Assembly (NCBI GenBank): GCA_000004695.1
Contig: CM000150.2
Location: forward strand, 1,952,001-2,016,000
DNA: 64,000 nucleotides
Direction: 5' to 3'
Source of the DNA: Dictyostelium discoideum
Lineage: Eukaryota
Numbering within the stretch: the first letter of the stretch is position 1; each line of letters begins with the position of its first letter. Below, one piece after another: positions 3,776 to 63,056 of this stretch. Position numbers and translations under genes: made by a program. The notes under the pieces are model-generated. The model saw nothing but the letters and a program-made list of their open reading frames with translations, had not been told where the DNA came from and did not search any database.

Positions 3776-3830
<55 letters not shown>

Positions 3831-3833
<3 letters not shown>

Positions 3834-4698
3834 TCTTTTTTATATGAAAAATGAAATAATCAAAAAAAGAGATTGTTGTTGTTGTTTGTTTTTTTTCGAT
3901 CTGATTATTTTTTGCTTTTTTTTGAAAATTTTGCTACGCAAAATTCTCAAAACGAAACAAATAATAAATTACAATAAAGTAAAAAGATGGCTTTTTAAGA
4001 TAGTTTATTTATTTATTTATTTGTTTTTTAAGTCTTTTTTATATGAAAAATGAAATAATCAAAAAAAGAGATTGTTGTTGTTGTTTGTTTTTTTTCGATC
4101 TGATTATTTTTTGCTTTTTTTTGAAAATTTTGCTACGCAAAATTCTCAAAACGAAACAAATAATAAATTACAATAAAGTAAAAAGATGGCTTTTTAAGAT
4201 AGTTTATTTATTTATTTATTTGTTTTTTAAGTCTTTTTTATATGAAAAATGAAATAATCAAAAAAAGAGATTGTTGTTGTTGTTTGTTTTTTTTCGATCT
4301 GATTATTTTTTGCTTTTTTTTGAAAATTTTGCTACGCAAAATTCTCAAAACGAAACAAATAATAAATTACAATAAAGTAAAAAGATGGCTTTTTAAGATA
4401 GTTTATTTATTTATTTATTTGTTTTTTAAGTCTTTTTTATATGAAAAATGAAATAATCAAAAAAAGAGATTGTTGTTGTTGTTTGTTTTTTTTCGATCTG
4501 ATTATTTTTTGCTTTTTTTTGAAAATTTTGCTACGCAAAATTCTCAAAACGAAACAAATAATAAATTACAATAAAGTAAAAAGATGGCTTTTTAAGATAG
4601 TTTATTTATTTATTTATTTGTTTTTTAAGTCTTTTTTATATGAAAAATGAAATAATCAAAAAAAGAGATTGTTGTTGTTGTTTGTTTTTTTTCGATCT
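3831..4698. repeat. Tandem array of 4.36 copies of a 199-bp unit. Copies start at 3831, 4030, 4229, 4428 and 4627. They are the 5' A-module-like repeats of the TRE5-A-like element.
   Basis: The exact 199-bp periodicity is visible directly. The ORF track shows four identical 69-aa artefact ORFs at 199-bp spacing. Confidence 0.9.
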
Positions 4699-4749
4699 TA
4701 AAAATTTTAAAAATGGATAGGAGCAAAAAAACGAAATTTCATCAAAAAT

Positions 4750-4822
4750 GCCTGGATGGCTCAGTAGGCAGAGCGAGCGGCTGTTAACCGCTAGGTCCAT
4801 GGTTCGATCCCATGTCTAGGCG
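4750..4822 (+). tRNA. tRNA-Asn (anticodon GTT).
   Basis: Cloverleaf: acceptor GCCTGGA/TCTAGGC, D-arm TGGCTCAGTAGG, anticodon stem AGCGG/CCGCT with loop CTGTTAA, T-arm CATGG TTCGATC CCATG. It is 73 nt and identical to the copy at 18455. Confidence 0.9.
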
Positions 4823-4849
4823 AATTTTTATACTTCCCTTCATATGTCA

Positions 4850-4864
4850 CAGGTTCGATTCTCT
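4850..4864 (+). promoter_or_regulatory. External B-box-like motif (GGTTCGATTCTC), ~31 bp downstream of tRNA-Asn.
   Basis: GGTTCGANTCC-like consensus. The same motif lies downstream of the second tRNA-Asn, beyond the TRE3 insertion, at ~23897. Confidence 0.5.
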
Positions 4865-5161
4865 TTAATTATGGTTTAAATCTCCAAAAAGATTGGAAAG
4901 GATGTCATTTGTTAAAATGGTACACAAAAAATTTCAAAACAATATAACTACTATCGCCCAATTTCGTTTAATAGCTAAACTTAATTTATTAATATAAAAA
5001 AAAAATTTGACTCAAATTTTATATTTAAAAAAAAAAAAAACAAATAATTTAAAATTTCTTTGGATGTATATTTTTTTATTGATTTACATAAATATAAACT
5101 ATAGAATAAACAGTGATTCAATATTAAAAAATATATATATACTATTATAATTTATTACTAT

Positions 5162-6072
5162 TTATGCTAATCTTTCAATAATATGAACACCTGAATCAGT
5201 ATCTACAATGCCACTAACTTCACCAACTTTTAAAGAAAATCTAAAGTTTTAAAATAATAATAAAGTATATTAATAATTAATTTATTATTATTAAAAATGA
5301 TTTTGATAATCAATGTTAATTTTATGATTATTGAAAAAACTTACGCGCAATCTTCAAAAGGTCTTTGCATTTGGCCTCTTTTGAATGGATCAAGATAGCC
5401 ACCTCTTTTAGCACTGCTACAATCTGAATTTTTATGAGCTAAATCTTCAAATGTGGCAGAACCAGATATAATTGTTGCTCTATATTCATTAAGTTTAGCG
5501 ATTGCTCTTTCTTTGGTTCTTGTAATTTTAGATTCCCTCCAAGATGATGGATTTCTTGAACCTTGATGTTTAACTAAAAGATGACGGCAAGTGACTGTTT
5601 TTGGTTCTGATGATGATGATGATGATGATGATGAAGAAGATGATGGATTTGTATTTACAGTGCCTTTTAATATAAAATGTTTTGATGATGAACCAAATTT
5701 AAAAGTGAAGTTTTCTTTAACAGTTGTTGGAGTTAATGGTTTAACTTGTTCATCATTAACTTGAGTGCCAGTTGCAGATTGTAAATCAATTAAATAGAAT
5801 CTATTATTTGCACCATGATATACCAATGCAGCATGTCTTCTTGATACTGATGGATGATCTAATAAAACTGACGCAACTTCACTACTTCTACCAAATACTG
5901 TGAATTTATCTTTACTAATATCAACTCTATCTATATTCACACCATTCTTTATAATCTCTAAATAAACATTTGATATTGGTTTTGATGCCCATTCTGGACA
6001 TTTAAATGGTGGTATTGGTTCATTTTCATCTTCTCTAATTTCATTATTATTATTATTATTATTATCGCCCAT
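5162..6072 (-). CDS. FHA-domain + Pin1-type parvulin PPIase, possibly the Dictyostelium PinA-type protein. Two exons: 5345..6072 and 5162..5240. The intron is 5241..5344 (GTAAGT...TAG).
   Basis: The FHA signature is FGRSSEVASVLLDHPSVSRRHAALVYH. The parvulin core is HLLVKHQGSRNPSSWRE...SDCSSAKRGGYLDPFKRGQMQRPFED. The second exon, FSLKVGEVSGIVDTDSGVHIIERLA*, completes the Pin1 C-terminus. Exon phases are consistent, giving 268 aa. Confidence 0.8.
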
Positions 6073-6412
6073 TCTTTCTTTTTTTTTTTTTTTTTAAATA
6101 CAAGTGTGTTGATGTAATTTTTATTTTTTTTTTTTTTTTTTTTTGAATTTGAAATTTTTTTTTTTAATCCAAAAAAAAAAAAAAAATAAAAACAAAAAAA
6201 AAATAAAATAAAAAAAAAAAAAAATAACCACTTTTAGTATTTTAATATAAAATGAATAATTTCAAGAATGAAAAAATAATATTTAGTAAATATTTATTAA
6301 AAAATTAAAATATCAAAATAAATTTTTTTTTTTGAAAATTGAGGAGCCCAAAAATAGGAAATGTTTTATGATTCTTTGAAAATAAAATTGGAAATATTTT
6401 TCAAAAATTTAG

Positions 6413-6444
<32 letters not shown>

Positions 6445-6534
6445 CAATTAACAATTTTTTTTTTTTATTTTTTTCTTCTTTTTTTTTTTTTTTAACCCTT
6501 TATTTTTTTTATTTTCCAACAAATACAATTTTAA

Positions 6535-7583
6535 ATGATTGAAAAAACAATGACAAATATTAGTGATGAATGGGTTAGTTTAAATGTTGGGGGTAAGATT
6601 TTTGATACAACTATATCAACATTAACCATTTGTAAAGATTCAGTATTATATAAAATGTTTAAGAGAGAAGACTCTGATAGTTTTACAATGGATTTGGGTA
6701 AACCACAAATTCAAGCCTCAAGAAAAGATAAGAATGGTGCCTATTTAATTGACAGAGATCCAATTTATTTTAGATGTATTTTAAATTATTTAAGAACTCA
6801 ACCAACCAATGCAAAAGATTTAATAATTGATGATAATGTATCATTAAAAGGAATAAGAGAAGAAGCAAATTTTTTTCAATTGGATCATTTGGTTGATTTA
6901 ATTAATACACTTTTAACAAGGGTATCGGATTTCACTAGAAAAGATATACTACTCAATAGACAATCAATTAAATTGACAAAGAGGAAACTATATGATTTGG
7001 ATCTACAAGGCATCGATTTCCAAAAGGAGAATTTCAGCTATAGTATCATTTCAAATTGTAATTTCAATGGCTCACAAGTTAGCAAATCCCATTTCTTGCA
7101 TGTGGTGGGCGACAATTGTACTTTCATTAAAGCATCTGTTGACAATACCAATTTCTCAAGTTCCGATTTATGTGGTTCAAATTTTACTGATTCCGATTTG
7201 GGTCATTCAAGTTTCAATAATTGTAATCTCATTGGGTCAATATTTGACCAATCCAATTGTGTTGGTGCTCTATTTCAACGTGCTATCATTAAGAATGCCT
7301 CATTTAAGAATTCAAATCTCGAGCATGCAAAATTCCAAAAGGCAATCCTAAAGAATAGTGATTTCACAAATGCTCAAATTCAAAATTGTCATTTCACCTC
7401 TGCCGATATTCGTGGTTGTAAATTCGATTGGAAAAATATCTCTTTTGGTCTCTTTAAGAAAGCAAAAGTCACTCAACAACAATATGATGATATACCTCTC
7501 TCAAATAAACATTTATTAGGTTTTAAAATTATTGATAGTCAAGAATATATTGAAAAAATGAATAGAAAAAATAAAAATAATAA

Positions 7584-7614
<31 letters not shown>

Positions 7615-7668
7615 AATGAACAAATTAATAATAATAATAACAATAATTCTGTAAATTTAAATAATAAA

Positions 7669-7712
<44 letters not shown>

Positions 7713-7726
7713 ACAAATAAACAATA

Positions 7727-7757
<31 letters not shown>

Positions 7758-7767
7758 TGAACAAATA

Positions 7768-7802
<35 letters not shown>

Positions 7803-7881
7803 TAGTAATAATAATAATAGTAATAGTAATAATAACAATAGTAATAATAATAATGAACAAATAAATAATAATGAACAAATA

Positions 7882-7944
<63 letters not shown>

Positions 7945-7956
7945 TCTATAAATTTA

Positions 7957-7989
<33 letters not shown>

Positions 7990-8037
7990 TCTGTAAATTT
8001 AAATAATAATAATAATAAAGATATTATAAATAATTAG
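6535..8037 (+). CDS. KCTD9-like protein: BTB/T1 domain + pentapeptide repeats + long poly-Asn tail (500 aa).
   Basis: The N-terminal LNVGGKIF...YLIDRDPIYFRCILNYLR is a BTB/K-tetramerisation fold. It is followed by ~20 consecutive pentapeptide-repeat units (NFSYS, NCNFN, ...). The tail is >200 residues of N-rich low complexity. Confidence 0.8.
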
Positions 8038-8617
8038 TTTATCAAATAAAGTTATAAGATAAACATAATTAAACTCTTTTTTATTTTATTTTAAATCATA
8101 TTTTGTTTGTTCAACAAGAAATGGTGAAATATTATATTTTCTAGTTATATGTGCTGATAAATGATTTCTTTAAATTATGTGCCACAGTGATAGATGGTTC
8201 TAGTAGGATACTTTTAATTTTGAATGTATTTCCATTCGTTACAGCCAACGTGTTGTGTATCAATTCTTCACCACCATATATTTTCCTATGTGAAATTGGT
8301 GAGCATTTATATTTTAATGAAGCTTTGACCAAAATTTTCTTTACATGTTCATATTCTTCCCAACCTTTTATATATATTTGGGTTGGTTCCTATTTGTTTT
8401 TGTTTTTTTTAGCAATAATTGAAATGCAGGGTCGTGGATTTGTTTTAAAATCTGATAATTCTTTTTGATATCTTTTTGTATGGCGAGATGTAATTTGGTT
8501 TTATTTTTCTTTTTATTTTTTTTTTTTTTTTTTTTTTTTTCCATATGTTTGTTTTATGTTTTTTTTTTTTTAATTTTTTTTTTTTTTTTTATATATATAA
8601 TTATTATTATATTACTA

Positions 8618-8667
<50 letters not shown>

Positions 8668-8994
8668 CTTTCTTTATTTGTTTAGTTTAACAAAAATATG
8701 CGAATATATAAAATACTGTAAAAATTATATTAAAAATAATTTATTTTTATTTTATTTTTTTTATTTTTATTTTATTTTTTTTTATTTTTTTTTTTTCAAT
8801 TTTTTAGGTGCCTACCCAAAGAATTGTGAGTTTTTTTTTTTTTTTTTTTTTTTTTGTTTTAATTAGTGCTGACCTAAAAAAATAAAAAAAATTATCTTTC
8901 AGTGTTTTATATATTTGCATATTTTCGTTAAAATAACTAAATAAAAAAAATATATAATATAATAATTATATAATAACATATAATAATAATTACA

Positions 8995-9030
<36 letters not shown>

Positions 9031-9101
9031 AAAAAAGAAAAAACATAAACACACAAAAAATAAAAATTATTTAAAGAAAATAATAAGAAAAATAAAATAA
9101 A

Positions 9102-9834
9102 ATGACATCTCGTTATGCAAAAAGACTTCAAAAAGAATTATTAGATTTAAAAACAAATCCGCCACCCTGCATTTCAATTACTGAAGGTGATAATTTAGAT
9201 AAATGGGTCATAGCTGTGGATGGAACAGAGGGTTCAATTTATCAAGGAGAACATTTCAAATTACAATTTAAATTCTCTTCTGGTTATCCATTAGATTCAC
9301 CAGGTAAGTTTAATTAATATCATTTATATATATATATATGATAACTTTATATGACCAATTATAATTATATTAATAATAATAATAATTTGGAATATTATAA
9401 TAGAGGTAATTTTCATTGGAACACCACCAATTCACCCACATATTTATAGCAATGGTCACATTTGTTTATCGATTTGTAAGTTTTAAATATTAATAGTGTA
9501 GCAGTAATAGTAGTAGTAGTAATAGTAGGTAATGGTATTAATATTTTATTTATCTTCATTCTCCCTTTATTTTTTAGTATATGATAATTGGAGTCCAGCT
9601 TTAACTGTTTCATCAGTTTGTTTAAGTATTTTGAGTATGTTAAGTGGTTGCACTGAAAAGGTATGTTTTTAATATTAATTAATATTATTAATGCAGGTCA
9701 CTCAACACAATCTAACAATACATTTTTACTTTTTTTTTTAGATTCGTCCAACTGATGATTCAAAATATGTTTCAAGAGTATTAAATAAAAGTCCAAAAGA
9801 AGTTAGATGGATGTTCCATGATGATACAGTATAA
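9102..9834 (+). CDS. Ubiquitin-conjugating enzyme E2 W (UBE2W)-like. Four exons: 9102..9303, 9404..9475, 9578..9660, 9742..9834.
   Basis: The spliced product ...[85 protein letters not shown] is collinear with human UBE2W ([12 protein letters not shown] active-site region). All donors are GTAAGT/GTATGT, phases are consistent, and the protein is 149 aa. Confidence 0.85.
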
Positions 9835-17829: not shown

Positions 17830-18454
17830 AAAAAAAAAACTGAAAAAAACAAAATCAAAATCAATTTTGATTAAAACAAAAAAAAAAAAAAAAAAAAAAA
17901 AAGATAAGAAAGGATTAAAAATTTACTTTTAATTATTTAATAGTAAAACTATGGACTTTTTTTTTTTTATTATGTATTATTATAAATAAAAAAAAATAAT
18001 AGATAAACCCTTCTTTATTTATTATATATATATATATATAAAATATATATAAATATATATTTCATATAATTCAAATACAACTTGAAATTTTCAATCATTT
18101 ATTTATTTATTTGTCACTCTTTTTCTTTTAATTCTTGTATTTTTTTTTTTTCTTTTGCTTTGTGATTAAATAATTTTAAATATTGATTTATTAATATTAT
18201 TATTATTCCAATTCAAAAAAAAAAAATTAATATTATTATTATTTCTTGATTATTTTTCCAAAAAAAAATTATATATAATTTTGCTCAAAACAATTGGATT
18301 TATCTTTTTTTTAAAAAGAACAATAAAAATCCAAGTATAATTTTTAGCTATTTTCAATTTTTAAAATAAATAATTCCTGGAAAGAGATTTTGGTAATTTG
18401 AAAAACAATGAAAAAAAGGGAGAGGAGCAAAAAAAATGAAAATTCATCAAAAAT

Positions 18455-18527
18455 GCCTGGATGGCTCAGTAGGCAGAGCGAGCGGCTGTTAACCGCTAGG
18501 TCCATGGTTCGATCCCATGTCTAGGCG
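18455..18527 (+). tRNA. tRNA-Asn (anticodon GTT), second copy.
   Basis: It is identical to the 73-nt sequence at 4750-4822. About 30 bp of upstream flank is similar in both loci. Confidence 0.9.
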
Positions 18528-18716
18528 ATATTTTTTTTAAGGTTTTTCCATTTAAAAAACAAAAAAAAAAAACCGAAAAAACAAAGAAATAAACGAGAAT
18601 TTATACATATAATAAATAAATCACTGTTATATCTTCACCGCCACATTCATTCCTCTTAATTTTACCCTTTTTTTGCTCAGTAAAGCAAGGGCTATCGTCC
18701 TATATACTTTTCAACA

Positions 18717-19925
18717 ATGGCTGATGATCACTCAACTGAATTACAGTTAAATCATACAGATAACAACACAACCAATACAAATAATACCTCCACAACCTCA
18801 ACAACAAAAAACAAAAGTGCAAAAATCGACACACCTAAAAAACAAACCCCAACAAACCAACTCTCACTAAACAAAGGACTTGATAATCAATTAGATATCA
18901 TTGCACCTCCATCAATCACAAGACCACTCTCTTTCTTAGAAAAAAACAATAACACCATCAACATTAAGTGTTACTTTAATCAACCACACATCCGTGAAGA
19001 ATTAACCTCAAAAGATGACACAAGAATTCAACAAATTCACAAAAACATTCACAAACTCTTCGAAGATATACTGTCGCCATCAGCATTCAAAATAATTGGT
19101 GCAACTGCCTTCGTAAATTGCAACGTTGATAAATTAACTTCAATAATCAACCTTCAAAACCAACTTGCACTAAATATCGACAAACTCAACTATAGATTCG
19201 ATATATCATCAAATGATTATGCAATCATTAAAACATTCATTAAAACGTACTCACCCAAACATGCAAACGATGCAATTACAAACAACCTCACTAAATTCAC
19301 CAGTTGTACATCAATTGAATCATTTACTGTCACATACTCATATGCTGTTGCGTTGAAAAGCTACATTATAACATATCATCTAATTGATCACACACACAAC
19401 ATTGTTGATCAAAAGATCGAACAACCATCTGGTATCACAAGATATATCAAAGCTGCAACACGTAGTGTCACTAAACACAAAATTCAACATGCAAAAAATG
19501 CAGATATGGCAACAACTATAAAAAATGCCATCACAAACCCAAACATGAACAAAAACAATCAACCACCAAAAAACAACATTAACACCCCACCAATCAACGA
19601 AATTGCAAATTCCAACCGCAATAATAACTCACTTCAAAATAGTGGTTCAAAAGCTATACTAAATGAATCACTTGATATTAACAATCAATCCCAAAACAAT
19701 AATGAAATTTCACACAAAAGTGATTCTTCAAATAATAATAACGGGAAAAACTCATTATCAATAAGCAATCCAACCGATCCAACAATTGTACCACAAAAAC
19801 CTCTACAATCTCAACCAAACAAACCAAGTGCACCAACTCCAAATCCAATAAATACAAGAAGAAGCAGCAATGCCCTGACTACACAACCAGTCAATACTGG
19901 TGCTGCCAAACCTAGTAAGGTATGA
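18717..19925 (+). CDS. TRE3 ORF1 (402 aa). Its stop overlaps the ORF2 start in ATGA.
   Basis: The ORF is complete. ...AKPSKV* ends at 19925 and the ORF2 ATG is at 19922. Confidence 0.8.
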   Translation: MADDHSTELQLNHTDNNTTNTNNTSTTSTTKNKSAKIDTPKKQTPTNQLSLNKGLDNQLDIIAPPSITRPLSFLEKNNNTINIKCYFNQPHIREELTSKDDTRIQQIHKNIHKLFEDILSPSAFKIIGATAFVNCNVDKLTSIINLQNQLALNIDKLNYRFDISSNDYAIIKTFIKTYSPKHANDAITNNLTKFTSCTSIESFTVTYSYAVALKSYIITYHLIDHTHNIVDQKIEQPSGITRYIKAATRSVTKHKIQHAKNADMATTIKNAITNPNMNKNNQPPKNNINTPPINEIANSNRNNNSLQNSGSKAILNESLDINNQSQNNNEISHKSDSSNNNNGKNSLSISNPTDPTIVPQKPLQSQPNKPSAPTPNPINTRRSSNALTTQPVNTGAAKPSKV

Positions 19926-22900
19926 GCTCAAAAATCAACTTTATAACATGGAATTGTAGAGGATTCACTGAAAACCCAAACAATCAACACAATTCCTACC
20001 AAAAAGCTGTTGACACACTACAACTACTTATATCAAAACTTCCACCTCGTCCAACAATCTCAATACTCACTGAACTCAATTCATCACCATTACAACTTAA
20101 ACATGATTTTCCCGATCACATCATCTCTGTCACCAAACGAGGAAATGGTGTAATCATCATTAACCATAACCCAAACACACTCAAACTCAAACACATATCA
20201 ACAATTGATGGTAGAGCTATTTTAGCAGACGTTATATTTCCAAATCAATTACCAATTGGTATTCTTGGAATTTACGCACCAGCATCAAATAATACCATCA
20301 AAAAGAATTCATATGCAACTTCACTACAAACACTTCTCCACAACCACTCAACAAACCCAATACCAAACCAATCCCAACATGTATCTATTATCGCAGGAGA
20401 TTTCAACTGTATCCACGACGACAATTCACTATTAGACGATATTATCCAATCCTACACATACCAACACCATCTAATTGATCAAGGTGAATTTAAAAACACT
20501 CCAACTCATACACATGGCAACAGATTAGATAGAATATATACTCAATACAATAGAATAGACCCTGAAAATATATATACACAAGTCCACCAAATTCCATCTT
20601 CATTATCAGATCATAATCCAATATCAACAACAATTTCTTCACCTTTTCAAATAAATAAACATAAGAAAAGATGGATATTATACCTGGTACTGCAAATGAC
20701 CATGAAGCAATCAATATTATCAATCATTTAATAACTAATCACAATAACACATCAATCAATCAATTTACAAACTGGTCAAAAGTAAAATCAAAAATTATTA
20801 AAACTCTAAAAAACTATCAATATAACAAAGACAAACAAACTCAACGTGCAAAACAAATACTATTAGAAAAAGCAGCAAAATTCAAACATCTTGAAGAACA
20901 ATGCATCGCTGAATACAATATTATATGTAACAAAAACAAATTACATCAAAACCACACAAACATATTAAAAAAACATATAAATGGAGAAATACCTAGCAAG
21001 TATCTATCAGCAATACTAAACAAAAGATCAAAAGATGCAAAAATTGAATCAATCCAATATGGTAACATAATTACATCCGACCCCGACCAAATTGAAAATG
21101 CGTTTGTTGAATTCTACACAAATCTATATAGCTTACAAATATGTTGTCCAATTACTCACCAGCTCATGCTAAACACATGGCCCATCATAAAAAATGAATA
21201 TTGGAATGGTTTAGACTCACCATTTATACAAGATGAAGTTGAAGCTGCAATTAAAACCTGTAACCCCAACAAATCACCCGGTCCAGATGGCGTTACAAAT
21301 GCATTCTACATTAATCATTTAAACCAAGTTAAACCAATTCTCACTACATTATTCAACGATATACTAGAAAATCCTCACCACATCACAACAGAATTCACAG
21401 AAGGTCTTATACACACAATATACAAGAAAGGCAACCCCTTACTCATATCAAATCGTCGTCCCATTACACTTCTAAACACTGATTACAAGATCCTCTCAAA
21501 AGTAATCAATGCACGTCTTCTGAGAATACTTCCTTTCATCATCAACAACAACCAAACTGGTTTCGTACCCCACAGATTCATCATAGACAACATCATCAAC
21601 ATCAATGAATTAATCAACTACCTCAAATCTAAAAACCTCCCTGGTATCATCACACTATTTGACTTCTTTAAAGCATTTGATTCTATCTCTCACGATAGCA
21701 TTAAAAGAACATTAATTCATATTGGTATACCAATAAAATTAATAAATTTAATCCACAAGCTATTATCTGACTCACAAGCAAAAATTTCAATTAATGGTAA
21801 AACGACCAGAAAATTCGATATTAAAAGAGGTGTAAAACAAGGTGACCCAATCTCAGCCACTTTATTTGTAATTGTAATTGAAATATTAGCAAGAACAATA
21901 AATGCAGACAATTCAATAATTGGATTACCAATTTCACCCAATCCACAAATTAAAATCAAATTTACCCAATTTGCAGACGACTCTACAACATACAACATCA
22001 ACTACGAACAACAACAACAATCAATCAAACATTTCGATAATTTCTGCGCTTCAACATCATCATCTTTAAATTTTGACAAAAGTGCAATAATAGAAATCAA
22101 CCCCCACAAAATCACTGATAAACACATAATAAACAACATTCCACAATCAAAAAGAATTCCAATAACCAAAAAAGATCAATCAGAAAGAGTTCTTGGCTAT
22201 TTCTTTAATCATAATGGTTTACATAGGAAATTTCCAGAAACAATGAAAACACTGATTAAATCATTAGTGCTATGGAAAACTAGTGGCACAACATTAAAAA
22301 CAAAAACAACCATCATAAACACCTACTCACTATCACCAATAACATATTTATCATACCTTGAAGAATTTACAAAAGATGAAGAAATTCAAATTAATAAATT
22401 AATCTCATGGTTTATGAATTCTCCCGCAAATTCTGAATCACCAACTCTCGATACCAATTCCATTGAAAACAACACATCAACCATCCATTCACGTGCAAAA
22501 ATACCTTTGATGTGTTATGATAGATCATTAAAACCATTAAAAGAAGGAGGTTGGGGTATGTGGAATATCCAATTACGACAAGTTGCTCAAAAGATTTGGA
22601 TATACAACAGATTTTTACAAATGCATAAATCTGCAAACAATTCAATATACATGATAAGTTGGATGGATCAAATCATCAACAAATCAATCTCTTCTCCATA
22701 CCTTATAAAAATAAAAAAAGAATGGGAAAACTATGCAACTCAAATTGGACATCTAAAAGATAAAGTTCAAATCCTACAACCAATATTAACAAAAAACCAA
22801 CCCTCTCAAACATTAAACACAAATAATATTTCACTACCACCAACACTCAAAGAAATCTACTCGACAATACTAAACAATCACCAATGCAAATCAAAAGACT

Positions 22901-23748
22901 ATATTGGCAAGAAATATTCAGATCTACTTCTTACTTCGCACCAACAATCAATACAACTATTATGGAAATACACATACGACCAACTTTTTGTCAAAATTCA
23001 AAAATTAAAAGATCCAAAAGGCCGAGATACAATGCAAAGATTCCATGCTAGATGTCTTCCGATTAATCATCTACACAACAAAGTTTGCCCCATTTGCAAC
23101 AATGAAATGAATAATGATCCCTATGGTCATTTGTTTTTCAATTGTCAGCACACAATCAACTTCATTAACCACGACAAATTAAAATATTTTATATATAAAA
23201 ATTGCAATGGAAACAAAAACTGGTCACTAACAAAAAACCAAACAACAAAATTATACACACTCATTTATAAACCACAAACAAACAACAAAGCATTTAAACC
23301 AGATCCAACTATCAATATTAATTTTCATTTTGCAGAAAACGCACAATATAAAAAATACAGGTTCAACTGGAATTATATAAACACAAATCTTGATCTAGTC
23401 AGAACACATGCATATTGGAACATAATCTCATTAGTTATTCACCAAATATGGATATGGTTATGCAAATCATTATTTGACATCAATATAACTCAATCAATTG
23501 ACAATTGGAACAACCAAATAAACAACACAACACTAGATTATGATATATTAAAATCAAAATGGCACAAGCTAATAAGATTGGAATATTCAAGAAGGTTATC
23601 AAACTTTAACCAATTCTCAATTAAAAACAACCTCACAAAAACTCAAAAAGAAACCCAATGGTCCGAAACCATCAAAAAATTTAAAAAAGAATGGAGCATA
23701 AACACTAATGAACCAATTCCAACAATTACACCACCAATTAATTATTAA
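19922..23748 (+). CDS. TRE3 ORF2: AP endonuclease + reverse transcriptase + C-terminal Cys/His domain. It is interrupted by a single 1-nt frameshift near 20681.
   Basis: Two ORFs (19922..20731 and 20671..23748) overlap in different frames. The sister copy reads attatCacctgg where this copy reads attatacctgg, giving continuous KHKKRWILSPGTANDHEA. Confidence 0.75.
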
Positions 23749-43559: not shown

Positions 43560-43631
43560 GGCTCCTTAGCATAGTGGTATTGCGCTTCCCTAGTAAGGAA
43601 GAGGTCATGAGTTCGATCCTCATAGGAGCCT
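43560..43631 (+). tRNA. tRNA-Thr (anticodon AGT), including a U discriminator.
   Basis: The acceptor is GGCTCCT/AGGAGCC. The anticodon stem CTTCC/GGAAG carries the loop CTAGTAA. The T-arm is ATGAG TTCGATC CTCAT. It is identical to the copy at 45247. Confidence 0.85.
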
Positions 43632-45246: not shown

Positions 45247-45318
45247 GGCTCCTTAGCATAGTGGTATTGCGCTTCCCTAGTAAGGAAGAGGTCATGAGTT
45301 CGATCCTCATAGGAGCCT
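45247..45318 (+). tRNA. tRNA-Thr (anticodon AGT), second copy.
   Basis: It is identical to 43560-43631. The upstream TTCAAAAATGGCTCC context is shared. Confidence 0.85.
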
Positions 45319-50299: not shown

Positions 50300-50830
50300 T
50301 GGCTATCTCACAATGAAGACCAAGTGCGGATAGAATAGTTGAAAAGATATTTTAATGATTCTTATATTTTTTATTAAAATTATTTATTTGTTTTATTTAA
50401 AATAGTTGGTGGTTCAATTTGTTTTTTTCTTGTCCAATTTCATCATTTTCTTTTATCACATCACATAATCTAACAATTTTTCCATTTATATACTGAAGAT
50501 TTGTTAATAATTCGGTTCTTCCATTAAAAAATTTTTTTTGATAAAGTTGGTATATTCACTGAGGCTCATACCCTCCATTCCTTGACCAGAAACCATTTTG
50601 CAATCTTTAAAGTAACCTCTTGAGAATTTATAATGATTAAAAAGGATAATGTCAATTATTTTTACCATTTTTTCTTTACAATCGGCTGTGCACACATTAG
50701 GTTAAAACATTGGAAATTCATTTGGATCGGTTAATAACCATAGGTATTTATTCTTATCTTCCTCAGCTTCTTCAACGGAAAGATGTGGGCACTTATTATT
50801 AGCTCTATCTTTCATTATTTAAGTTGTGAC
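50300..50830 (-). pseudogene. Member of the small Cys-containing protein family (paralog of 57231..57689), with an in-frame stop. It is possibly a pseudogene or has an unrecognised intron.
   Basis: The sequence ...DPNEFPMF*PNVCTADCKEKMVKIIDII...FSRGYFKDC resembles ...DQDEFPKIQPGYCTEECKEKMKEIYRITFERY. Confidence 0.4.
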
Positions 50831-51313: not shown

Positions 51314-52460
51314 ATGAGAAGATTGACATCTGCTTTCTATGATCCTCCAGCTTACCCCCATCCTCATACTGGATATCCCATGGGTTTGTTTGCCGGCAAG
51401 AGATAAAGATCAAATTTGTCAAGCACCCGGTATTTATATTTATTTCTCAAATACTCCACGACCTTATCCACCACGATTGGTTTCTCACCCAGTTACACAA
51501 CCTGTTTATTCGATTGGAAAATCAATTAATGATATTAGAAGTAGGGTTAAGGTCCATAGTGAAGATGATTTCCCCCATTTGATTAACACCCTAATGGTTT
51601 GCTAATGAGGTTCCCATGTAATAATGAACGTTCTGATAGTAGACCAAGTTTTTCTGAAGTAGCGTTATTAACAATGTTTGCAACCATTAAAAACTACATT
51701 TTAGGTGTCAAAGATAGTGATATTATAGTTTTTGATGACAATGGAGAACCATTTGATATTTTAAGAACGTTTTATGGAGTTAATAATAATAATCCATTTC
51801 GTACTTCTATTCCTCTCATCCAAGCTAATGGAACTGCTAAATTTGGATTCGATCATATGGTTGATTCCACACTTTAACCATTAGCTCCTCCTTCCATAGA
51901 TGTTATCAATGACACTAAATCAATTTTCCCAATAGGTATTCTATATGAATGTGGAAAACTACTTGATGGAGATTATAGTAATTTTGGTCAAGAAGAATCT
52001 GCCAATGGGGTATGTAACCCATGCAATAGAAAAAAAGAAAGTGAAGAGAAAAAATCAAATCCAATCAAATTCAAAAATCCACCATTATCTTACCGTTTAG
52101 AAATTAGCAATAAGTTTAGTAATTTGGAATATCAAAATGCCAAAGAAAATGGTCTTCTAGGAAAAAGTCTAGTTGAAACAGAAAAGCCATCAAAGCCATC
52201 AAAAGTTGGTCTTTTCACTAGGTTTGGCCGTTGGTAAAGGTCTTTTTGTTCCAGAGAAAAAAAGTAATTCGCTTCCTGGCAAATTCAAAGATAGTAATAT
52301 TGAAATGGTAGAGGTAAATCCTGGAGAGGAACAAATAAGTGAAGCGGCGGGCGTTGAGCATAGTCAAATTAGATATAGAGGCACAAATTACTTTTTTGAA
52401 CTTGGAGAAGCTGCTGAAGAGGCTGCTATGATTATCATATCATATCTTTTTTAATTTCTT
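51314..52460 (+). pseudogene. Paralog of the secreted-protein gene at 63222, broken by frameshifts into three ORFs (51339.., 51599.., 52173..).
   Basis: The sequence TGYP(M/W)..C.AR.KDQICQAPGIYIYFSNTP matches TGYPWVCTRYLDDTKEVVQKECKHPGIYLIFVNSP at 63222. Three different frames are needed. Confidence 0.4.
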
Positions 52461-53125
52461 GCACCTCTTTTACGTGCAAAGTTACCAGGTTTGGGTATAT
52501 ATCATTGAGTTTCTTGTGCAGTTGCATAAGTTCTAATTGGCTCTTGTCTTTCTCTGTTTCTTTGCAATCGTCTTCTTTCACTTTCTTCTTGCATCAACCT
52601 TCTTCTTTCTTCTTGTCCGGCCAATCTTTGTTGTGTTTTTTTAATTTTTTTTAATTTTACCTTTTCAAGATCTGCTTCAATTTCTTTTTTTTGACGGGCA
52701 CCCATCGTTTTTTTTTAAAAAATAAACCTAATGATTTATACTTGGTTATATTTAATAGTTGAGAATTTTTATTTTATGACATTGGTTTTGAATTATTTTT
52801 AAAAAAATCATTTTAAATTTTCTTTGATTCATTACATTTTTATTTCTATCTAATGATTTTATATTAATGATCAATAGAAAATCCAATAGCCACATAGGAA
52901 TTCTATAGAAAATCACTGGGAAATTTTGGTTTGATTACCTTTATAATGGTTATTTTCTAAAGATTTTCTATAGAAAACCATTGGGTAAACAGTTGTTTCT
53001 ATAGGAAATCTTTAGAAAACAATCATTGGAAATCGTTGAATTTTTCCTTTTCTCAATTTTTTAATAGTTTTCTAATGGGTCACATCTATACCGTTATCTA
53101 TTGAAAACCATTCCAACAAAAAAAT
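52445..53125. repeat. Left arm of a ~650-bp inverted repeat. The partner is 56440-57057, ~95% identical. The left arm has an extra ~75-bp internal tandem duplication (TTCTATAGAAAA-CCATTGGG units).
   Basis: A reverse-complement comparison was done by eye. Both arms contain the small basic-protein gene. Confidence 0.8.
52502..52705 (-). CDS. Small basic coiled-coil protein (67 aa) encoded in the left IR arm.
   Basis: It reads MGARQKKEIEADLEKVKLKKIKKTQQRLAGQEERRRLMQEESERRRLQRNRERQEPIRTYATAQETQ. A near-identical paralog sits inverted at 56794. Confidence 0.5.
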   Translation of the reverse strand: MGARQKKEIEADLEKVKLKKIKKTQQRLAGQEERRRLMQEESERRRLQRNRERQEPIRTYATAQETQ

Positions 53126-56439: not shown

Positions 56440-57057
56440 ATTAGATATTGTTATTTCCAATGGTTTTAGATTGATAACGGTATAGATGTGACCATTACAT
56501 AGAAAACTATTAAAAATTGAGCCAAAGAAAAATCAACGATTTTTAATGGTTGTTCAAAGATTTCCTATAGAAACCATTATTTACCCTATGATTCTCTATA
56601 GAATTCCTAGCTAATGGATTTTCCAATGACCATTAATATAAAATCATTAGAAAGAAACAAAAATGTAACGAATCAAAGAAAATTTAAAATGATTTTTTTA
56701 AAAATAATTCAAAACCAATGTCATAAAATAAAAATTCTCAATTATTAAATATAAACATGTATAAATCATTAGGTTTATTTTTAAAAAAAAACGATGGGTC
56801 CCCGACAAAAAAAAGAAATTGAAGCAGATCCTGAAACGGTCAAATTAATTAAAATTAAAAAAGCACAACAAAGAATGGCTGAACAAGAAGAAAGAAGAAG
56901 GTTGATGCAAGAAGAAAGTGAAAGAAGACGATTGCAAAGAAACAGAGAAAGACAAGAGCCAATTAGAACTTATGCAACTGCACAAGAAGCTCAAAGATAT
57001 ATACCCAAACCTGGTAACTTTGCACGTAAAAGAGGTGCAAGAAATTAAAAAAAGAAA
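56440..57057. repeat. Right arm of the inverted repeat (partner 52445-53125).
   Basis: Landmark matches include ATAACGGTATAGATGTGACC vs GGGTCACATCTATACCGTTAT. The coding segments correspond. Confidence 0.8.
56794..57048 (+). CDS. Small basic coiled-coil protein (84 aa) encoded in the right IR arm.
   Basis: It reads MGPRQKKEIEADPETVKLIKIKKAQQRMAEQEERRRLMQEESERRRLQRNRERQEPIRTYATAQEAQRYIPKPGNFARKRGARN. Confidence 0.5.
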   Translation: MGPRQKKEIEADPETVKLIKIKKAQQRMAEQEERRRLMQEESERRRLQRNRERQEPIRTYATAQEAQRYIPKPGNFARKRGARN

Positions 57058-57982: not shown

Positions 57983-58195
57983 TCACTCTTCTTCTTTTGA
58001 TTCACTTTCTCCTTCTGAATCGGTTAGACCAGTTGTTTCAATTTCTACATCTACACCCCTTGGCACGTCACATAATCTAACTAGTTTACCATTAAGTATT
58101 CCCGCTTTCATAGTTTTTAAAATACTATCACGGTACTCCGGATCAATCTTCTCCTCTTCTAAACAATCATTGTATGTCTGACAGCCAACTGTCAT
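57983..58195 (-). pseudogene. C-terminal half of a family member disrupted by the Tdd-4-like insertion (…MTVGCQTYNDC…KLVRLCDVPRGVDVEIE…EEE*).
   Basis: It lies immediately adjacent to the left TIR/TSD. It aligns with the C-terminal half of 57231..57689. Confidence 0.6.
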
Positions 58196-58341
58196 TGTTG
58201 TAGGGAATTTTCCATAAAATTTCACTACAGTAGCGTAGTGAATTTTATTATTTAATTTCACTACAGTAGCGTAGTGAAAAAAAAAAATCACTGACCTTAA
58301 ATTTTTTTTTTTTTCAAAAAACAAATAAAGTTTATTAAATT
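58196..58341. repeat. Left TIR of the Tdd-4-like element.
   Basis: It is the reverse complement of 62654-62799, with 4 small differences over 146 bp. Confidence 0.85.
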
Positions 58342-58398
58342 GAAATTTTATTTTTTGTTTTAATTATTATTTTATTTATTTTTATTATAATTATTGTT

Positions 58399-58438
<40 letters not shown>

Positions 58439-58879
58439 CAATTTTTTTTTTTTAAATTTTTTTCAATTTTTATTTGTTTATTAAATTGTAATTTTATTTT
58501 TTGTTTTAATTATTATTTTATTTATTATTATTGTTAATTTTTTTTTTTTTTCAATTTTTTTTTTTTTAATTTATTTTTATTAATTTATTTTTATTAACTC
58601 CCTGAGTTGTTCAATTGCTTGATTTACCATATCACTGTAAACACTGCACACAATTGAATTTTTTCTAGCTTTGTTACCTCTGGTGCATTTGATGTTTTTG
58701 CATTTTCACAGCGAAGAAAAAACCACCTTTAAATTCGCTTTAAATTAAATTTAAATTTGCTTTAAAGTCCTGAATTAAAGCAATTTTAAAGGTAATTTTA
58801 AAGGTAATTTATAAGGTTACTTTAAAATCACCTTAAAAATTACCTTTAAAATTACCTTTAAAATTACCTTTTTAATGGC

Positions 58880-59035
58880 TTTAAAAGCGAGGTCCTGAGT
58901 TCGAAGCCGTTATTTAACGGATAAATTTTTTAAAATTTTTTTTTTAATTTTTCAAAAATTACCAAAAGGGATTCGATCCCCCGACCCTCTATCAAAGGGT
59001 AGTCTCATCAACCATTACACCATTTGATTGCTTTG
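58880..59035. other. tRNA-like remnants (T-arm/B-box-like GAGTTCGAAGCC and GGATTCGATCCC; a Gln/Ile-like D/anticodon segment on the minus strand) inside the Tdd-4-like element, flanked by 12-bp tandem repeats (ACCTTTAAAATT)n.
   Basis: Partial cloverleaf elements but no complete acceptor stem. The flanks 58740-58870 and 59120-59420 are degenerate direct repeats. Confidence 0.3.
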
Positions 59036-59974
59036 ATGAAAAATTTAAAAATGATAGAATATTTTATCCCCATTTTTTTTTTCTAAAATTAGATCTTTTT
59101 TATTAAAAACCTTAAATTTATGTTTAAAGGAAATTTAAATTCACTTTAAATCTACTTTAAATATACTTTAAATCCTATTTAAAATTAATTTAAAATAAAT
59201 TTTAAAGGTATTTTTAAATATCTTAAAAATTATCTTAAAAATTACCTTAAAAATTACCTTTAAAATCACCTTTAAAATCACCTTTAAAATTGCTTAAAAA
59301 TTTATTTTAAAGCAAATTTTAAAGGCATTTTTAAATATCTTAAAAATTACCTTAAAAATTACCTTAAAAATGAATTTTTTAAACGCGGCTTTAAATTCAA
59401 TTTAAATCCAATTTAAATCAACTTTTCTTTAAATTTGCTTTAAAGGTGCATTTTTCTTTGCTGTGTTCCTTTGTATACAAAAAAGTCCAAATATAATTCG
59501 TTTTCTATTACAGTTTTTACACAATGTTGGTGAAATTGTTTTGATTTTAATTCTAATGCTTCTAACATCATATTTGGATTTTTAACGATTAAAGCATCAC
59601 CACTATTTACATATAGTACTTTGGCTGCTTTTTCGAGGAATTTAGTCAAATTTTCCTCTGAATCTAACTATTCTTCATTGCCATATTCAATGGCTAAATT
59701 TCTTAAGAGTTTTATCGAATCTATTAATTCTTCGATCATTCTTTTTTTTTGAAATTTTTTTTTATTTTGTTTTTTCAATTTTTTTTTTTTATTTTGTTTT
59801 TTCAATTTTTTTTAAGTTTTATTTTTTTTTATTTTTTTTTATTTTTTTTAACAAATGTAATTTTTTTTTATTTTTTTCAATTTTTTTTTTTTTTAATTTT
59901 TAATTTTTTTTTTTTTTTTTAATTTTTTGTGTTGATTTGTGTTTTTTTTGTTTTTTTGATTTGGCCACTTGTTT

Positions 59975-60961
59975 TTATTTTCTAATTTCCCCATACCCCC
60001 TTCTATTAATTGCAACCAAATCAAGTTCTAATTTTTGTGTCCTTGTTAACTTTGTTTTTGCAACTTTTTTTGAAGGTATCACATTAACGATTTTTCCTAT
60101 TGATGGTGATTTGGAAGGTGATTTAAATGGTGATTTAAAAGGTGAATTGGAAGGTGATTTAAATGGTGAATTGGAAGGTGAAATGGATGGTGATTTGGAA
60201 GGTGATTTAAATGGTGATTTGGAAGGTGATTTAAATGGTGATTTAAATGGTGAATTGGAAGGTGAAATGGATGGTGATTTGAGAGGTGATTTGGATGGTT
60301 TAGAATGTGATTTTAAAGGAGGTTTATTAACAATTGGTATCTTATGAGGACGGCCTCTGAGACGTTTAACAGTTGTTACTATACCACTACCAGATTGTGG
60401 TATAGTATACGATGGTATTATTTGCACTTGAGGTATTGGTGGTACTATTTCTTTTAAATTCATATCCTTTCTCAAACAATTCATTAAATTTGGCGCTGTT
60501 GGATTATTATTTAAAAATGGGAGTATTTCTTCTTGTTCCATTTCATTATTGAGTTTGTGTTGAAATGGATTATCGTTAATGATAGGTGGAATATTTGATG
60601 GATTGTTAAGAGCATCTTCCAAAACCCTAAATGGATCATTTTGTGTTACCAATTGATGCAAGTTGAAATTGGATAAATCCTTACCAAGATTTTTAATAAA
60701 CTGAACCAGAAATTCAATAACTTTCCCATCATTATTTAAATAAAGACCAGAAGTAAAAGAATCAATATCTTTTTGTATGTTTGGCGATGTTCTAAAAATA
60801 TCAACTGTTGATTGTTTATAAAGAACCAACTTGTTACCTCCTACAAAACCAGAGTATAAACCTTTTTTTTGAAGGCTATTGATTCCATCTTCCAAAAATT
60901 CAAGTTTATAAAGTTGTTTAGTGTCTTCCTGTATTACCTTATGAATTTTACACAAAATCAA
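59975..60961 (-). CDS. Transposon-internal ORF (328 aa) with an AT-hook (RLRGRPHK) and 14 tandem SPxK/SPFK repeats, likely DNA-binding.
   Basis: The ORF is complete. The tail reads KSPLKSPSISPSNSPFKSPFKSPSKSP..., which is histone-H1-like SPKK. Confidence 0.5.
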   Translation of the reverse strand: MILCKIHKVIQEDTKQLYKLEFLEDGINSLQKKGLYSGFVGGNKLVLYKQSTVDIFRTSPNIQKDIDSFTSGLYLNNDGKVIEFLVQFIKNLGKDLSNFNLHQLVTQNDPFRVLEDALNNPSNIPPIINDNPFQHKLNNEMEQEEILPFLNNNPTAPNLMNCLRKDMNLKEIVPPIPQVQIIPSYTIPQSGSGIVTTVKRLRGRPHKIPIVNKPPLKSHSKPSKSPLKSPSISPSNSPFKSPFKSPSKSPFKSPSKSPSISPSNSPFKSPSNSPFKSPFKSPSKSPSIGKIVNVIPSKKVAKTKLTRTQKLELDLVAINRRGYGEIRK

Positions 60962-61031
60962 TATTTTCTATTAGAATTAAATATAAAATTTGTTAATTAT
61001 TACTGTTTCATATATTATTAATCTTTATGTT

Positions 61032-62268
61032 TTAATTACTTACATTATTTTTTTTAATTTCTAGAAAGAGTACAGTATCACCAACTTTCAATCCCTTTGG
61101 TGGTTTTGAATTCCATTGATTTTGGTAACTTGTGAGATTTTCAAGAATAATAGCTGTTCTTTCTTCTTTTGAAACATCTGAAACACCAATTGATTGAGAG
61201 TCTTGTTCTGATTGAACATTAATAAACAAAGGAACAATACCAACAGCTTGAGATGGTGTCATTTTAATTGTTCTTGTTTTTGTATTATTGTAATCATACA
61301 AAGCTTGTTTTAATAGTTCAGAAAGAGACCTAGAAGTACCATCAAGAAAACTAAAATTTATTTATAAATGATTAATTAATAAACATATCGATAATTTATA
61401 TTGTTCACAATATCATACTCTTGTTGTTTTAATTTTGAGATCCTCTCCTTGATAGTTCGATTCAATCTTTCTACCATACCTTGAGTTGTTGGTGTACGAG
61501 GAGCTCCATGTGCTGACTTGGAGCCTGGAAAAAGTTTTAGGAATTCTTTTTGGACTTTGTTTTTAAATTCACGTCCATTATCGCAGTGCCATACTTTCAC
61601 AGGTTTGCCAAAGTACGTGAGAGCCAAAAAATTGTATATGGGAACTGTTCTCTTTGTTGTCAAACATCTAAAAAATAAATGATAATTAAAATAAAAAAAG
61701 AAAACTAATAAATTAATAAATAAAAAATAAATACCTTCCAGTAGCAAATTTTGTAAAAGAATCTATGCATAGAATAATGTAAACAACATCGGTGTCGTAC
61801 GGTTGTACAGAGTCATATTGGATAAGATCATCTAGTTTAGTTAGTATCTTTTCATTATCATCATCGTATGTAACTTTTTCTTTATGTTCACCTTTAATTG
61901 ATGTTAAATCATAAACCAATCTTGAGTATTCCTCGGTATCTACAATTGGAGCAAAATCCTTTGTTATACCTATTAATTTATTTAAATTATTAAAAGAGTT
62001 TTAATATAAAAGTTACAAAACATCATATAAAAATGATTGATACCAAACCTTTTATTCTATTTCGTTGGCAAATGTCACACGTATCTACTGCATCAGATAC
62101 AAAAGAATACAATCCCATATTATAATATTTAGTCTTGTAGTTCCCATAGGTTGCATCTCTTCCTATATGACCTTTATGCATTTCTTCCCAGAGTGATACC
62201 ATTCTATAATCATTAATTACTTCTAAACACACTTCTTTTGATATATTTCTATCTCCGCCACAATTCAT
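61032..62268 (-). CDS. Retroviral-type (c-)integrase gene of the transposon. Exons in order: HHCC zinc finger (62023..62268), DDE core part 1 (61713..61919), DDE core part 2 (61376..61747), C-terminal GDTVLF domain (61032..61301). Intron boundaries are not resolved.
   Basis: The zinc finger is H-x2-H ... C-x2-C (HKGHIGRDATYG...CDICQRNR). The catalytic D's are DTDVVYIILCID and HCDNGREF. The catalytic E is PRTPTTQGMVERLNRTIKE. Confidence 0.7.
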
Positions 62269-62487
62269 GACTTTTTTTTCAATTCTAAATAATTTTTCTT
62301 TTCTGTTTCTGTTTTTTATTGGTCAGAATTTAAAAAATGATTGTGTTATTGTAAGGAAAAATATTTACTCATCATGTAAAAATTTATAATTTTTATGTTT
62401 AGTATTTTCAAAATTATTATCTTCAATAAATTTTAAATAATTTATAATTTCATTTATTTTATCTTGTTTCATTTTGGGAAAATGAAA

Positions 62488-62522
<35 letters not shown>

Positions 62523-62653
62523 TGTTGGGGAAAAAAAAAAAAAGTTTTGGCGCAAAAAAAAAAAAAAAAATAAAATAAAAAAAAAAAAAAATAAAATAAA
62601 AAAAAAAAAAAATAAAAAAACTTATATAGAACTAATAATCAAATAAAAGATAA

Positions 62654-62799
62654 TAATTTAATAAACTTTATTTGTTTTTTGAAAAAAAAAAAATTTAGGG
62701 TCAGTGATTTTTTTTTTTCACTACGCTACTGTAGTGAAATTAAATAATAAAATTCACTACGCTACTGTAGTGAAATTTTATTGAAAATTCCCTACAACA
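62654..62799. repeat. Right TIR of the Tdd-4-like element.
   Basis: As above. Confidence 0.85.
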
Positions 62800-63056
62800 G
62801 TCATTATTGGTGGGTCTGGGAAACTTTTGAATATTTTACAATCATCATAGTAATTATTAACTGCCTTGAGATATCCTTCGAAAGTTATCCTATAAATTTC
62901 TTTCATTTTTTTTTTACATTCTTTTGTACAGAGTCTATTTATCTCAGGGAATCTATCCTGGTCAAATAATTTATCATCGTATAAAAAGGGGCCAAGTTTT
63001 TTAAGGTTTTCTATTGAAAAGCGGTCATGTCCGCATCCACCTACTTTTCTCAACAT
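62800..63056 (-). pseudogene. N-terminal half of the same disrupted family member (MLRKVGGCGHDRFSIENLKK…KIFKSFPDPPIMT).
   Basis: It abuts the right TIR/TSD. Joining it to 57983..58195 across the TSD restores a full-length homolog. Confidence 0.6.

Follow-up and report, generated by a model that had tools for sequence, protein, structure and literature searches.

The stretch of DNA examined here, hereinafter the window, comprises 64,000 nucleotides of the Dictyostelium discoideum genome (GenBank assembly GCA_000004695.1, contig CM000150.2, positions 1,952,001 to 2,016,000 of the forward strand); coordinates given below are those of the window unless another locus is named. Near its end, two halves of a small host gene are held apart by a DNA element that is bounded by terminal inverted repeats (TIRs) and by a target-site duplication (TSD), that encodes a multi-exon integrase and that, judging from its sequence, appears to be a copy of the transposon Tdd-4. 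Within the putative last exon of this element sits a second, non-coding element of 759 bp that has TIRs and a TSD of its own (Table 1). The presence of an integrase-type, TIR-bounded transposon of the Tdd-4 kind had been proposed in an earlier note made from the letters of the window, and is borne out here both by computation and by empty sites in related genomes.

Table 1. Features of the split host gene, the larger transposon and the element nested in it
Feature	Position	Strand	Remarks
Host gene, N-terminal half	62805..63056	-	codons 1-84; with GTCAT 62800-62804 reaches codon 86
Host gene, C-terminal half and stop codon	57983..58195	-
Intact neighbouring paralog, 152 aa	57231..57689	-
DNA transposon assigned to Tdd-4	58196..62799	gene on minus strand	4,604 bp
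Tdd-4 TIR, gene 3' end	58196..58340	+	145 bp, begins TGTTGTAGGG
Tdd-4 TIR, gene 5' end	62656..62799	-	144 bp
Tdd-4 TSD copy 1, GTCAT	58191..58195	.	single-copy at empty sites L003, L005
Tdd-4 TSD copy 2, GTCAT	62800..62804	.	abuts TIR
23-nt palindromic sub-repeat TTTCACTACAGTAGCGTAGTGAA	58220-58242, 58256-58278	+	two direct copies in TIR
23-nt sub-repeat, mirror copies	62717-62739, 62753-62775		in right TIR
Integrase/transposase gene, exons 1-6	59975..62472	-	splice enumeration, translation
Exons 1-3	62472-62369; 62284 (or 62308)-62049; 61969-61735	-
Exons 4-6	61667-61419; 61350-61044; 60967-59975	-
HHCC zinc-binding motif (HKGH ... CDIC)	62068..62178	-	Pfam Integrase_H2C2
DDE catalytic core	61460..61823	-	D166 (IQYD), D221 (HCDNG), E258 (MVERLN)
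AT-hook-like RLRGRPHK	60364-60341	-	exon 6, contains RGRP
16 tandem SPXX repeats	60295-60101	-	exon 6; repeat finder shows 12-nt DNA periodicity
3' open reading frame, putative exon 7	59667-59468 + 58706-58580	-	108 aa without nested element
Nested non-coding TIR element, MITE-like	58707..59465	+	759 bp, 21.7% G+C
Nested-element TSD, 2 bp (TT, plus strand)	58705..58706 and 59466-59467	.
Nested-element TIR CACAGCGAAGAAAAAACCACCTTTAAA	58707..58733	+	partner 59439-59465, 24/27
Near-perfect long hairpin in nested element	~58784..58863	.	fold
Nested-element core	58897..59029	.	B-box-like 58897-58908 (+), 58969-58979 (-)
A-box-like TGGTGTAATGG	59012-59022	-	nested-element core
Sub-threshold tRNA-like fold	58959-59029	-	ARAGORN -ps80 'tRNA-Ser'

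When the two ends of the larger element are aligned, they match over 145 and 144 nt, respectively, apart from two mismatches and a 1-nt indel within a T-run, and terminate in TGTTG...CAACA; the near-perfect identity ascribed to these repeats previously is thus upheld, and their length, given then as 146 bp, is corrected to 145/144 bp. Outside this stretch, the similarity between the ends drops to the level of A/T-rich low-complexity sequence, and the repeat finder gives a figure of 254 nt at 80%. A 47-nt TIR probe has two matches in the entire window, both at the ends of the element, compared with the 0 expected from shuffled sequences. The direct GTCAT duplication, also reported in the earlier note, flanks both ends and is single at the empty sites; the chance identity of a pair of 5-mers at the composition of the window is approximately 0.003. 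Both the inverted repeats and the duplication accordingly hold up under computer alignment.

An independent Tdd-4 copy, with the same TIRs and its own 5-bp TSD (TCATC), is found in an 11-kb locus from another D. discoideum genome (L001). Because the two mismatches between the left and right TIRs in the window, at positions 18 and 102, are found again in the L001 copy, they reflect a family-level asymmetry rather than decay, and the ends of the window copy conform to the consensus. In L001, the left TIR has one substitution and a T-run 1 nt shorter, and is otherwise identical to that of the window. The 23-nt palindromic sub-repeats that are present twice in each TIR are candidate binding sites for the transposase.

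Deletion of positions 58196-62804 leaves 63056..62805 and 58195..57983 of the minus strand as one continuous 465-nt open reading frame (ORF) that encodes a protein of 154 aa, such that the insertion point falls in codon 85/86. In a BLASTP comparison, the reconstructed protein is 45% identical to the product of the intact neighbouring gene (E=6e-35), and the alignment runs unbroken across the junction; the halves are collinear with the paralog, as expected from the proposal, made in the earlier note, that a member of a host gene family had been split. No Pfam domain was detected in either the reconstructed protein or the paralog. A protein search identified intact relatives in Dictyostelium only, namely, in D. 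cf. discoideum (95% identity, 159 aa) and D. firmibasis (77%).

The D. cf. discoideum locus (L003), which encodes this intact 159-aa protein, is an empty site that reads ...CCACCAATAAAGACAGTTGG... and, in a longer form, ...CCACCAATAAAGACAGTTGGCTG..., with a single copy of the target pentamer. It is syntenic with the window on both sides, with matches to 63445-63153 upstream and to 57158-56828 downstream. Another empty site, L005, reads ...CCACCAATAATGACAGTTGGCTGTCAG..., which is identical to the reconstructed host-gene junction. Because the empty sites in L003 and L005 carry one copy of the pentamer, a true insertion with a 5-bp duplication into a Dictyostelium-specific gene is confirmed. In L002, a further D. 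discoideum assembly (GCA_054883475.1), Tdd-4 is inserted at the same site, with flanks that are 99.5% identical, so this insertion is common to at least two D. discoideum genomes and is absent at the syntenic D. cf. discoideum site. The comparison of empty sites among strains that had been suggested earlier was thus carried out in silico; it yielded the empty sites in L003 and L005, whereas no polymorphism of the Tdd-4 insertion was seen within D. discoideum proper, the window and L002 both being filled. Another locus, L006, considered as an intraspecific empty site, was rejected as a non-syntenic paralog.

The neighbouring paralog is encoded identically in L002 and is missing at the syntenic position in L003 (6535-6674), where 139 bp are found vs 763 bp. 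There is a weak match to a third paralog at 50543-50761. A segment of approximately 480 bp beside the paralog (~56571-57052) has an inverted copy 4 kb off (52447-52932) with 93% identity and matches L003 as well.

The gene carried by the larger element is assembled by five GT-AG introns of 60-84 nt that join six ORF segments. The product comprises 707 aa with the intron-1 acceptor at 62285, as in the model built here, or 715 aa with the acceptor at 62309 that is used in the public models. The public gene models share the junctions of introns 2-5, and across the exon junctions the reading frame is conserved in the 43%-identical models of Tdd-5. The multi-exon retroviral-type integrase with HHCC, D, D and E residues that had been discerned in the letters finds support in the Pfam matches to Integrase_H2C2 (E=1.1e-7, 32.2 bits, cut-off 25.5) and rve and in matches to known structures, the best of which are the integrases of Rous sarcoma virus (RSV) and prototype foamy virus (PFV), with E-values of about 5e-6; the match to rve_3 (22.7 bits) is just below the threshold. 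The RSV and PFV alignments cover D221 and E258, which are separated by 36 residues (numbering of the 707-aa model), and in the PFV alignment, HCDNG pairs with HSDQG and MVERLN with KVERKN. Column conservation in the family alignment backs D166, D221 and E258 as the catalytic triad; VYDLTS was considered as the site of the first catalytic aspartate and rejected in favour of IQYD (D166), by spacing and by conservation in a distant homologue (P0012). The AT-hook and SPKK-type repeats reported earlier are indeed present, not in a separate ORF as then described but in exon 6 of the integrase gene, which runs in frame into the AT-hook-like motif and the SPXX repeats. A regular-expression search of the 707-aa product detected neither a GPY/F nor a YPYY motif, and the Ginger2 elements are described as lacking both (Bao et al., PMC2836005).

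The 3' ORF downstream of exon 6, a putative exon 7, stops, as it stands, after ~67 codons (...VYKGTQQRKMHL*), and its last ~40 codons are lost. After removal of the nested element, the restored 108-aa ORF is 89.5% identical to residues 550-654 of the AX4 gene model DDB_G0287117; no homologue of exon 7 was found in the Tdd-5 protein models. An in-frame TAG at 59668-59670 lies directly upstream of this ORF, and a short ORF, MIEELIDSIKLLRNLAIEYGNEE (59739-59671), lies inside the would-be intron 6; the public models handle this region inconsistently. Exons 1-6 and both TIRs of the window copy are intact and agree with the consensus.

As to the family of the larger element, its integrase product is 95-97% identical to two D. 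discoideum protein clusters with many AX4 genes and, with the alternative intron-1 acceptor, matches the integrase portion of AX4 DDB_G0268958 at 100% identity along 715 aa. By contrast, it is 43% identical to the cluster that holds DDB_G0290955, which is labelled Tdd-5 in dictyBase (PMC3386910 supplement), and Tdd-4 and Tdd-5 are the two integrase-type DNA transposons reported for D. discoideum (PMC2836005). Once the nested element and the 2 bp of its TSD are subtracted, the element measures 4,604 - 759 - 2 = 3,843 bp, and the orthologous copy in L002 measures 3,831 bp, as compared with the TDD-4 reference of 3,839 bp, which has a 5-bp TSD and TGTNR termini (PMC2836005). Given the 5-bp TSD, the TGTNR termini, the ~145-bp TIRs, the corrected length, the multicopy protein family and the 43% identity to Tdd-5, the sequence would identify the element as Tdd-4 itself, a cut-and-paste transposon of the Ginger2/TDD group. 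The term 'Tdd-4-like' used in the earlier note was right as to kinship and too cautious in claiming mere likeness, the protein being 95-100% identical to the multicopy AX4 family and 43% to Tdd-5.

The window copy shares with Tdd-4 the TGTNR...CA termini, the length of 3.84 kb without the nested element, the near-perfect TIRs, the presence of multiple copies in D. discoideum, and a multi-intron transposase that has HHCC and DDE motifs and a tail of tandem SPXX repeats and lacks both GPY/F and YPYY. It differs in holding the 759-bp insertion that truncates the last exon; in addition, Bao et al. give TIRs of 260 bp including an imperfect extension (PMC2836005) vs the 254 nt at 80% seen here. Tdd-5 (DDB_G0290955; AF298206) has the same architecture, 5-bp TSD and exon junctions and also belongs to the Ginger2 group, and differs in the protein identity of 43% and in being reported as single- or low-copy (PMC3386910 supplement). 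Tdd-4, reportedly described by Wells in 1999, is the founding member of the Ginger2/TDD group. It is reported to have 15 SPXX repeats, vs the 16 counted here, and six introns, among them an AT-AA intron with alternative 5' splicing; in the window, five GT-AG introns are predicted, and the 3' boundary of the putative intron 6 reads AG.

The nested element begins and ends with CACAGC...GCTGTG and consists mostly of 11-12-bp TTTAAA-type repeats that have opposite orientations in its two halves; through these repeats, a weaker similarity of the TIRs goes on for ~190 bp. For the TIR pair itself, 0 matches are expected by chance. The sequence in uninterrupted Tdd-4 copies is ...AAAGGAAAATGC..., as opposed to ...AAAGGAA(element)AAAATGC... 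in the window; in particular, L001 and the orthologous L002 are unbroken at the insertion point (...CAAAGGAAAATGC..., as against ...CAAAGGAA(759 bp)AAAATGC... in the window). The 759 bp are a clean insertion with a 2-bp duplication, and the excess over the 3,839-bp reference maps exactly to 58707-59465 plus this duplication. The earlier observation that the element is ~0.8 kb longer than the 3.8-kb Tdd-4 therefore stands (4,604 vs 3,839 bp; PMC2836005), with an extent narrower than the 58600-59470 given then; the extra material, previously taken for a satellite block, is instead a discrete transposon with its own TIRs, 2-bp TSD and uninterrupted sites elsewhere.

Four more full-length copies of the 759-bp element, with 98.6-99.6% identity, were found, all in the L001 locus: three at differing positions inside another Tdd-4 and one just outside. 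The L001 Tdd-4 (2722-8790 of that locus) holds the three nested copies, one of which is accompanied by a deletion of 30 bp of Tdd-4, and the fourth copy, at 8978-9736, lies 190 bp beyond the Tdd-4 end. This concentration could reflect a cluster of transposable elements, an insertion preference or an assembly issue. A second insertion that was checked (L001 3108-3867), with the window serving as the empty site, shows a TA duplication. The flanking dinucleotides match in all five copies (TA, AA, AA, GA and TT; chance ~1e-5), although two of these matches are weak, one being in an A-run and the other beside the 30-bp deletion. Conceivably, the element inserts preferentially into Tdd-4, inside which four of the five copies, a biased sample, are located. 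Since L002 shares the Tdd-4 insertion, again with flanks 99.5% identical, but lacks the nested element, this element was inserted after the D. discoideum lineages separated, hence recently, and is polymorphic among strains.

Two class II insertions, one nested in the other, are thus found at the locus, and for both of them TIRs, a TSD and an empty site were identified. We put at approximately 0.93 the probability of the joint reading, that a Tdd-4 copy split the host gene and that a 759-bp non-autonomous TIR element later entered the last exon of this copy. Several points weigh against it. The name Tdd-4 was given on length, TIR, TSD, protein family and the exclusion of Tdd-5. With regard to the transposase, the zinc domain alone passes its Pfam cut-off, the match to rve (26.7 bits) being below the cut-off of 32.6; the HMMER alignment to PFV integrase sets the first catalytic aspartate two residues off D166; the intron-1 acceptor is ambiguous (62285 / 62309); and intron 6 and exon 7 are putative. 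Finally, the copies of the nested element are a biased sample because the loci were fetched via Tdd-4 proteins.

That the larger element is instead Tdd-5 or some other integrase-bearing element, such as a fragment of the long terminal repeat (LTR) retrotransposons Skipper or DGLT-A, seems to us extremely improbable. The integrase fold is common to LTR retroelements, and Tdd-5 is of similar size and has a 5-bp TSD (PMC2836005). However, the product is 43% identical to the Tdd-5 cluster vs 95-100% to the multicopy family, the terminal repeats are inverted rather than direct, no GPY/F motif was found, and there are no ORFs for reverse transcriptase, RNase H or protease inside the element. Hardly any more credible is the view that the 0.76-kb block is integral, i.e., that the window holds a structurally variant, longer Tdd-4 or a member of a new Tdd subfamily. 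The block is indeed internal to the element, the 12-bp units repeated in it are similar to those coding for SPXX in Tdd-4 (~80% over 50 nt), and another Tdd-4 copy, that in L001, also holds the block sequence; but in L001 the same 759 bp occur at three other Tdd-4 positions and once outside, TIRs of 27 nt and a 2-bp duplication belong to the block itself, its removal restores the 108-aa ORF and the canonical length, and the orthologous L002 and paralogous L001 copies are uninterrupted at the exact site. These uninterrupted sites already refute an integral block. With regard to the resemblance of the repeats, a 12-bp unit, TTTAAAATCACC (58822-58870, 59227-59290), is ~80% identical, as the reverse complement, to the SPXX-coding repeats at 60105-60263, a likeness that is probably coincidental.

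A different possibility, that the locus is a functional host-transposase fusion gene in which the host promoter and first 37 codons are spliced onto the integrase, arises from the public annotation. The AX4 gene model DDB_G0268958 (XP_646911.1; window 62041-62906) joins the host gene and the integrase, which share the same strand; its residues map to the window at 100%, the first 37 of them to the N-terminal half of the host gene (62906-62796). Because the residues of this model map at 100% to the host half and to the integrase, the locus is already in the reference annotation, and the window corresponds to AX4 chromosome 1 or to a sequence identical with it at the protein level. This predicted model, however, begins at an internal methionine of the host gene and translates the A/T-rich leader of Tdd-4 as an implausible stretch of low complexity (FYISFFIFFFFYF...), and other copies have an ATG of their own for this integrase (P0026, on 4 contigs). 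We therefore regard a functional fusion as very improbable; as judged from the sequence, DDB_G0268958 is a probable annotation artefact, a chimera of the host gene, the translated A/T-rich leader of Tdd-4 and the integrase.

The spliced transposase, of the retroviral integrase type, combines an HHCC zinc domain with a DDE core and carries at its C-terminus an AT-hook/SPXX tail that would bind DNA. By analogy with the family, it would bind the 145-bp TIRs and join the TG...CA ends to the target DNA, in which cuts staggered by 5 bp would give rise to the GTCAT duplication. Tdd-4 landed first, in host codon 85/86, and the 759-bp element entered the putative last Tdd-4 exon later, presumably mobilised in trans by a transposase that cuts with a 2-bp stagger.

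As for the nature of the 759-bp element, it contains no ORF of more than 52 codons, and a search of 5.8 billion proteins with its concatenated ORFs yielded no homologues. Its predicted fold is unusually stable (minimum free energy -180 kcal/mol, z = -13.5 vs shuffled controls), and the termini pair together; the only Rfam matches are weak, sub-threshold ones to microRNA (miRNA) precursors, which reflect the hairpin at 58784-58863. The earlier description of the block as tRNA-like is weakly true, in that there are a sub-threshold fold and B- and A-box-like motifs, whereas no tRNA was detected in the nested element at normal thresholds, either by ARAGORN (default, -ps) or by Rfam (no tRNA match at E<=1); the ARAGORN call appears solely at 80% of the threshold. 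A tRNA gene or a tRNA-derived short interspersed element was rejected, there being no recognisable cloverleaf by ARAGORN default or Rfam.

With its TIRs, TSD, lack of coding capacity, five copies at an identity of at least 98.6% and polymorphism, the 759-bp sequence is a class II element of the type of miniature inverted-repeat transposable elements (MITEs). It resembles the MITEs of D. discoideum in being short, non-coding, TIR-bounded, multicopy, self-folding and nested. D. discoideum has short class II elements that are non-autonomous, DDT-S, thug-T and thug-S, reportedly described by Glöckner et al. in 2001; of these names, DDT-S is perhaps the likeliest for the present one. A 2-bp target duplication is typical of Tc1/mariner and Mirage, and the termini of the CMC group (CACTA/Mirage/Chapaev) begin with CAC; the 759-bp element shares the 2-bp TSD and the CAC termini with these mechanistic analogues, and differs in that its TSD is not limited to TA and no transposase is linked to it. 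Membership in Tc1/mariner was rejected on the TSD, one of the five copies being flanked by TA and the others by AA, AA, GA and TT. Two named elements were rejected as well: H3R, which is a DGLT-A solo LTR (PMC5006619), and thug-S, from which miRNA sequences are known to derive (Meier et al., PMC4894637, Table 2), the thug-S-derived miRNA_can_D3 sequences being absent from the window at up to 4 mismatches. In L001, the miRNA_can_D3 sequences are found at ~1985-2065 with 1-4 mismatches, just outside the Tdd-4 end and the 759-bp copies, and therefore a thug-S-type element appears to neighbour the L001 Tdd-4. It is unlikely that the 759-bp element represents an undescribed, still mobile family of non-autonomous DNA transposons, defined by CACAGC termini, a sequence-relaxed 2-bp TSD, long hairpins resembling Dicer substrates and a tRNA-like core with B-box-like motifs.

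Elsewhere in the window, the region 18454-23748 contains a non-LTR retrotransposon with ORF1 (18717-19925), an APE-type endonuclease (19922-20731) and a reverse transcriptase (20671-23748). It begins ~190 bp downstream of a gene for tRNA-Asn(GTT) at 18454-18528, an arrangement that is expected for a tRNA-targeted element of the TRE3 type. The tRNA genes at 4749-4823, 18454-18528, 43560-43631 and 45247-45318 form two same-anticodon pairs, with two genes for Asn-GTT and two for Thr-AGT.

The main finding is, in essence, already known: Tdd-4 has been catalogued, and the insertion in the window is present in the AX4 reference as DDB_G0268958. What the present analysis adds is the assignment of the additional 0.76 kb, in its exact extent, to a recently inserted, strain-polymorphic MITE-like element and the recognition of DDB_G0268958 as a probable chimeric mis-annotation. 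An error of annotation is thereby exposed, in that the host gene is a pseudogene, interrupted by the insertion, and its model probably a chimera of transposon and host. According to a 2017 review, the DNA transposons of D. discoideum had not been studied in detail with regard to expression and control (PMC5633606). The comparison reported here provides in silico evidence that a short TIR element has moved recently in D. discoideum, its presence differing between strains, and the filled site and its empty counterpart might be used together to mark the activity of the 759-bp element.

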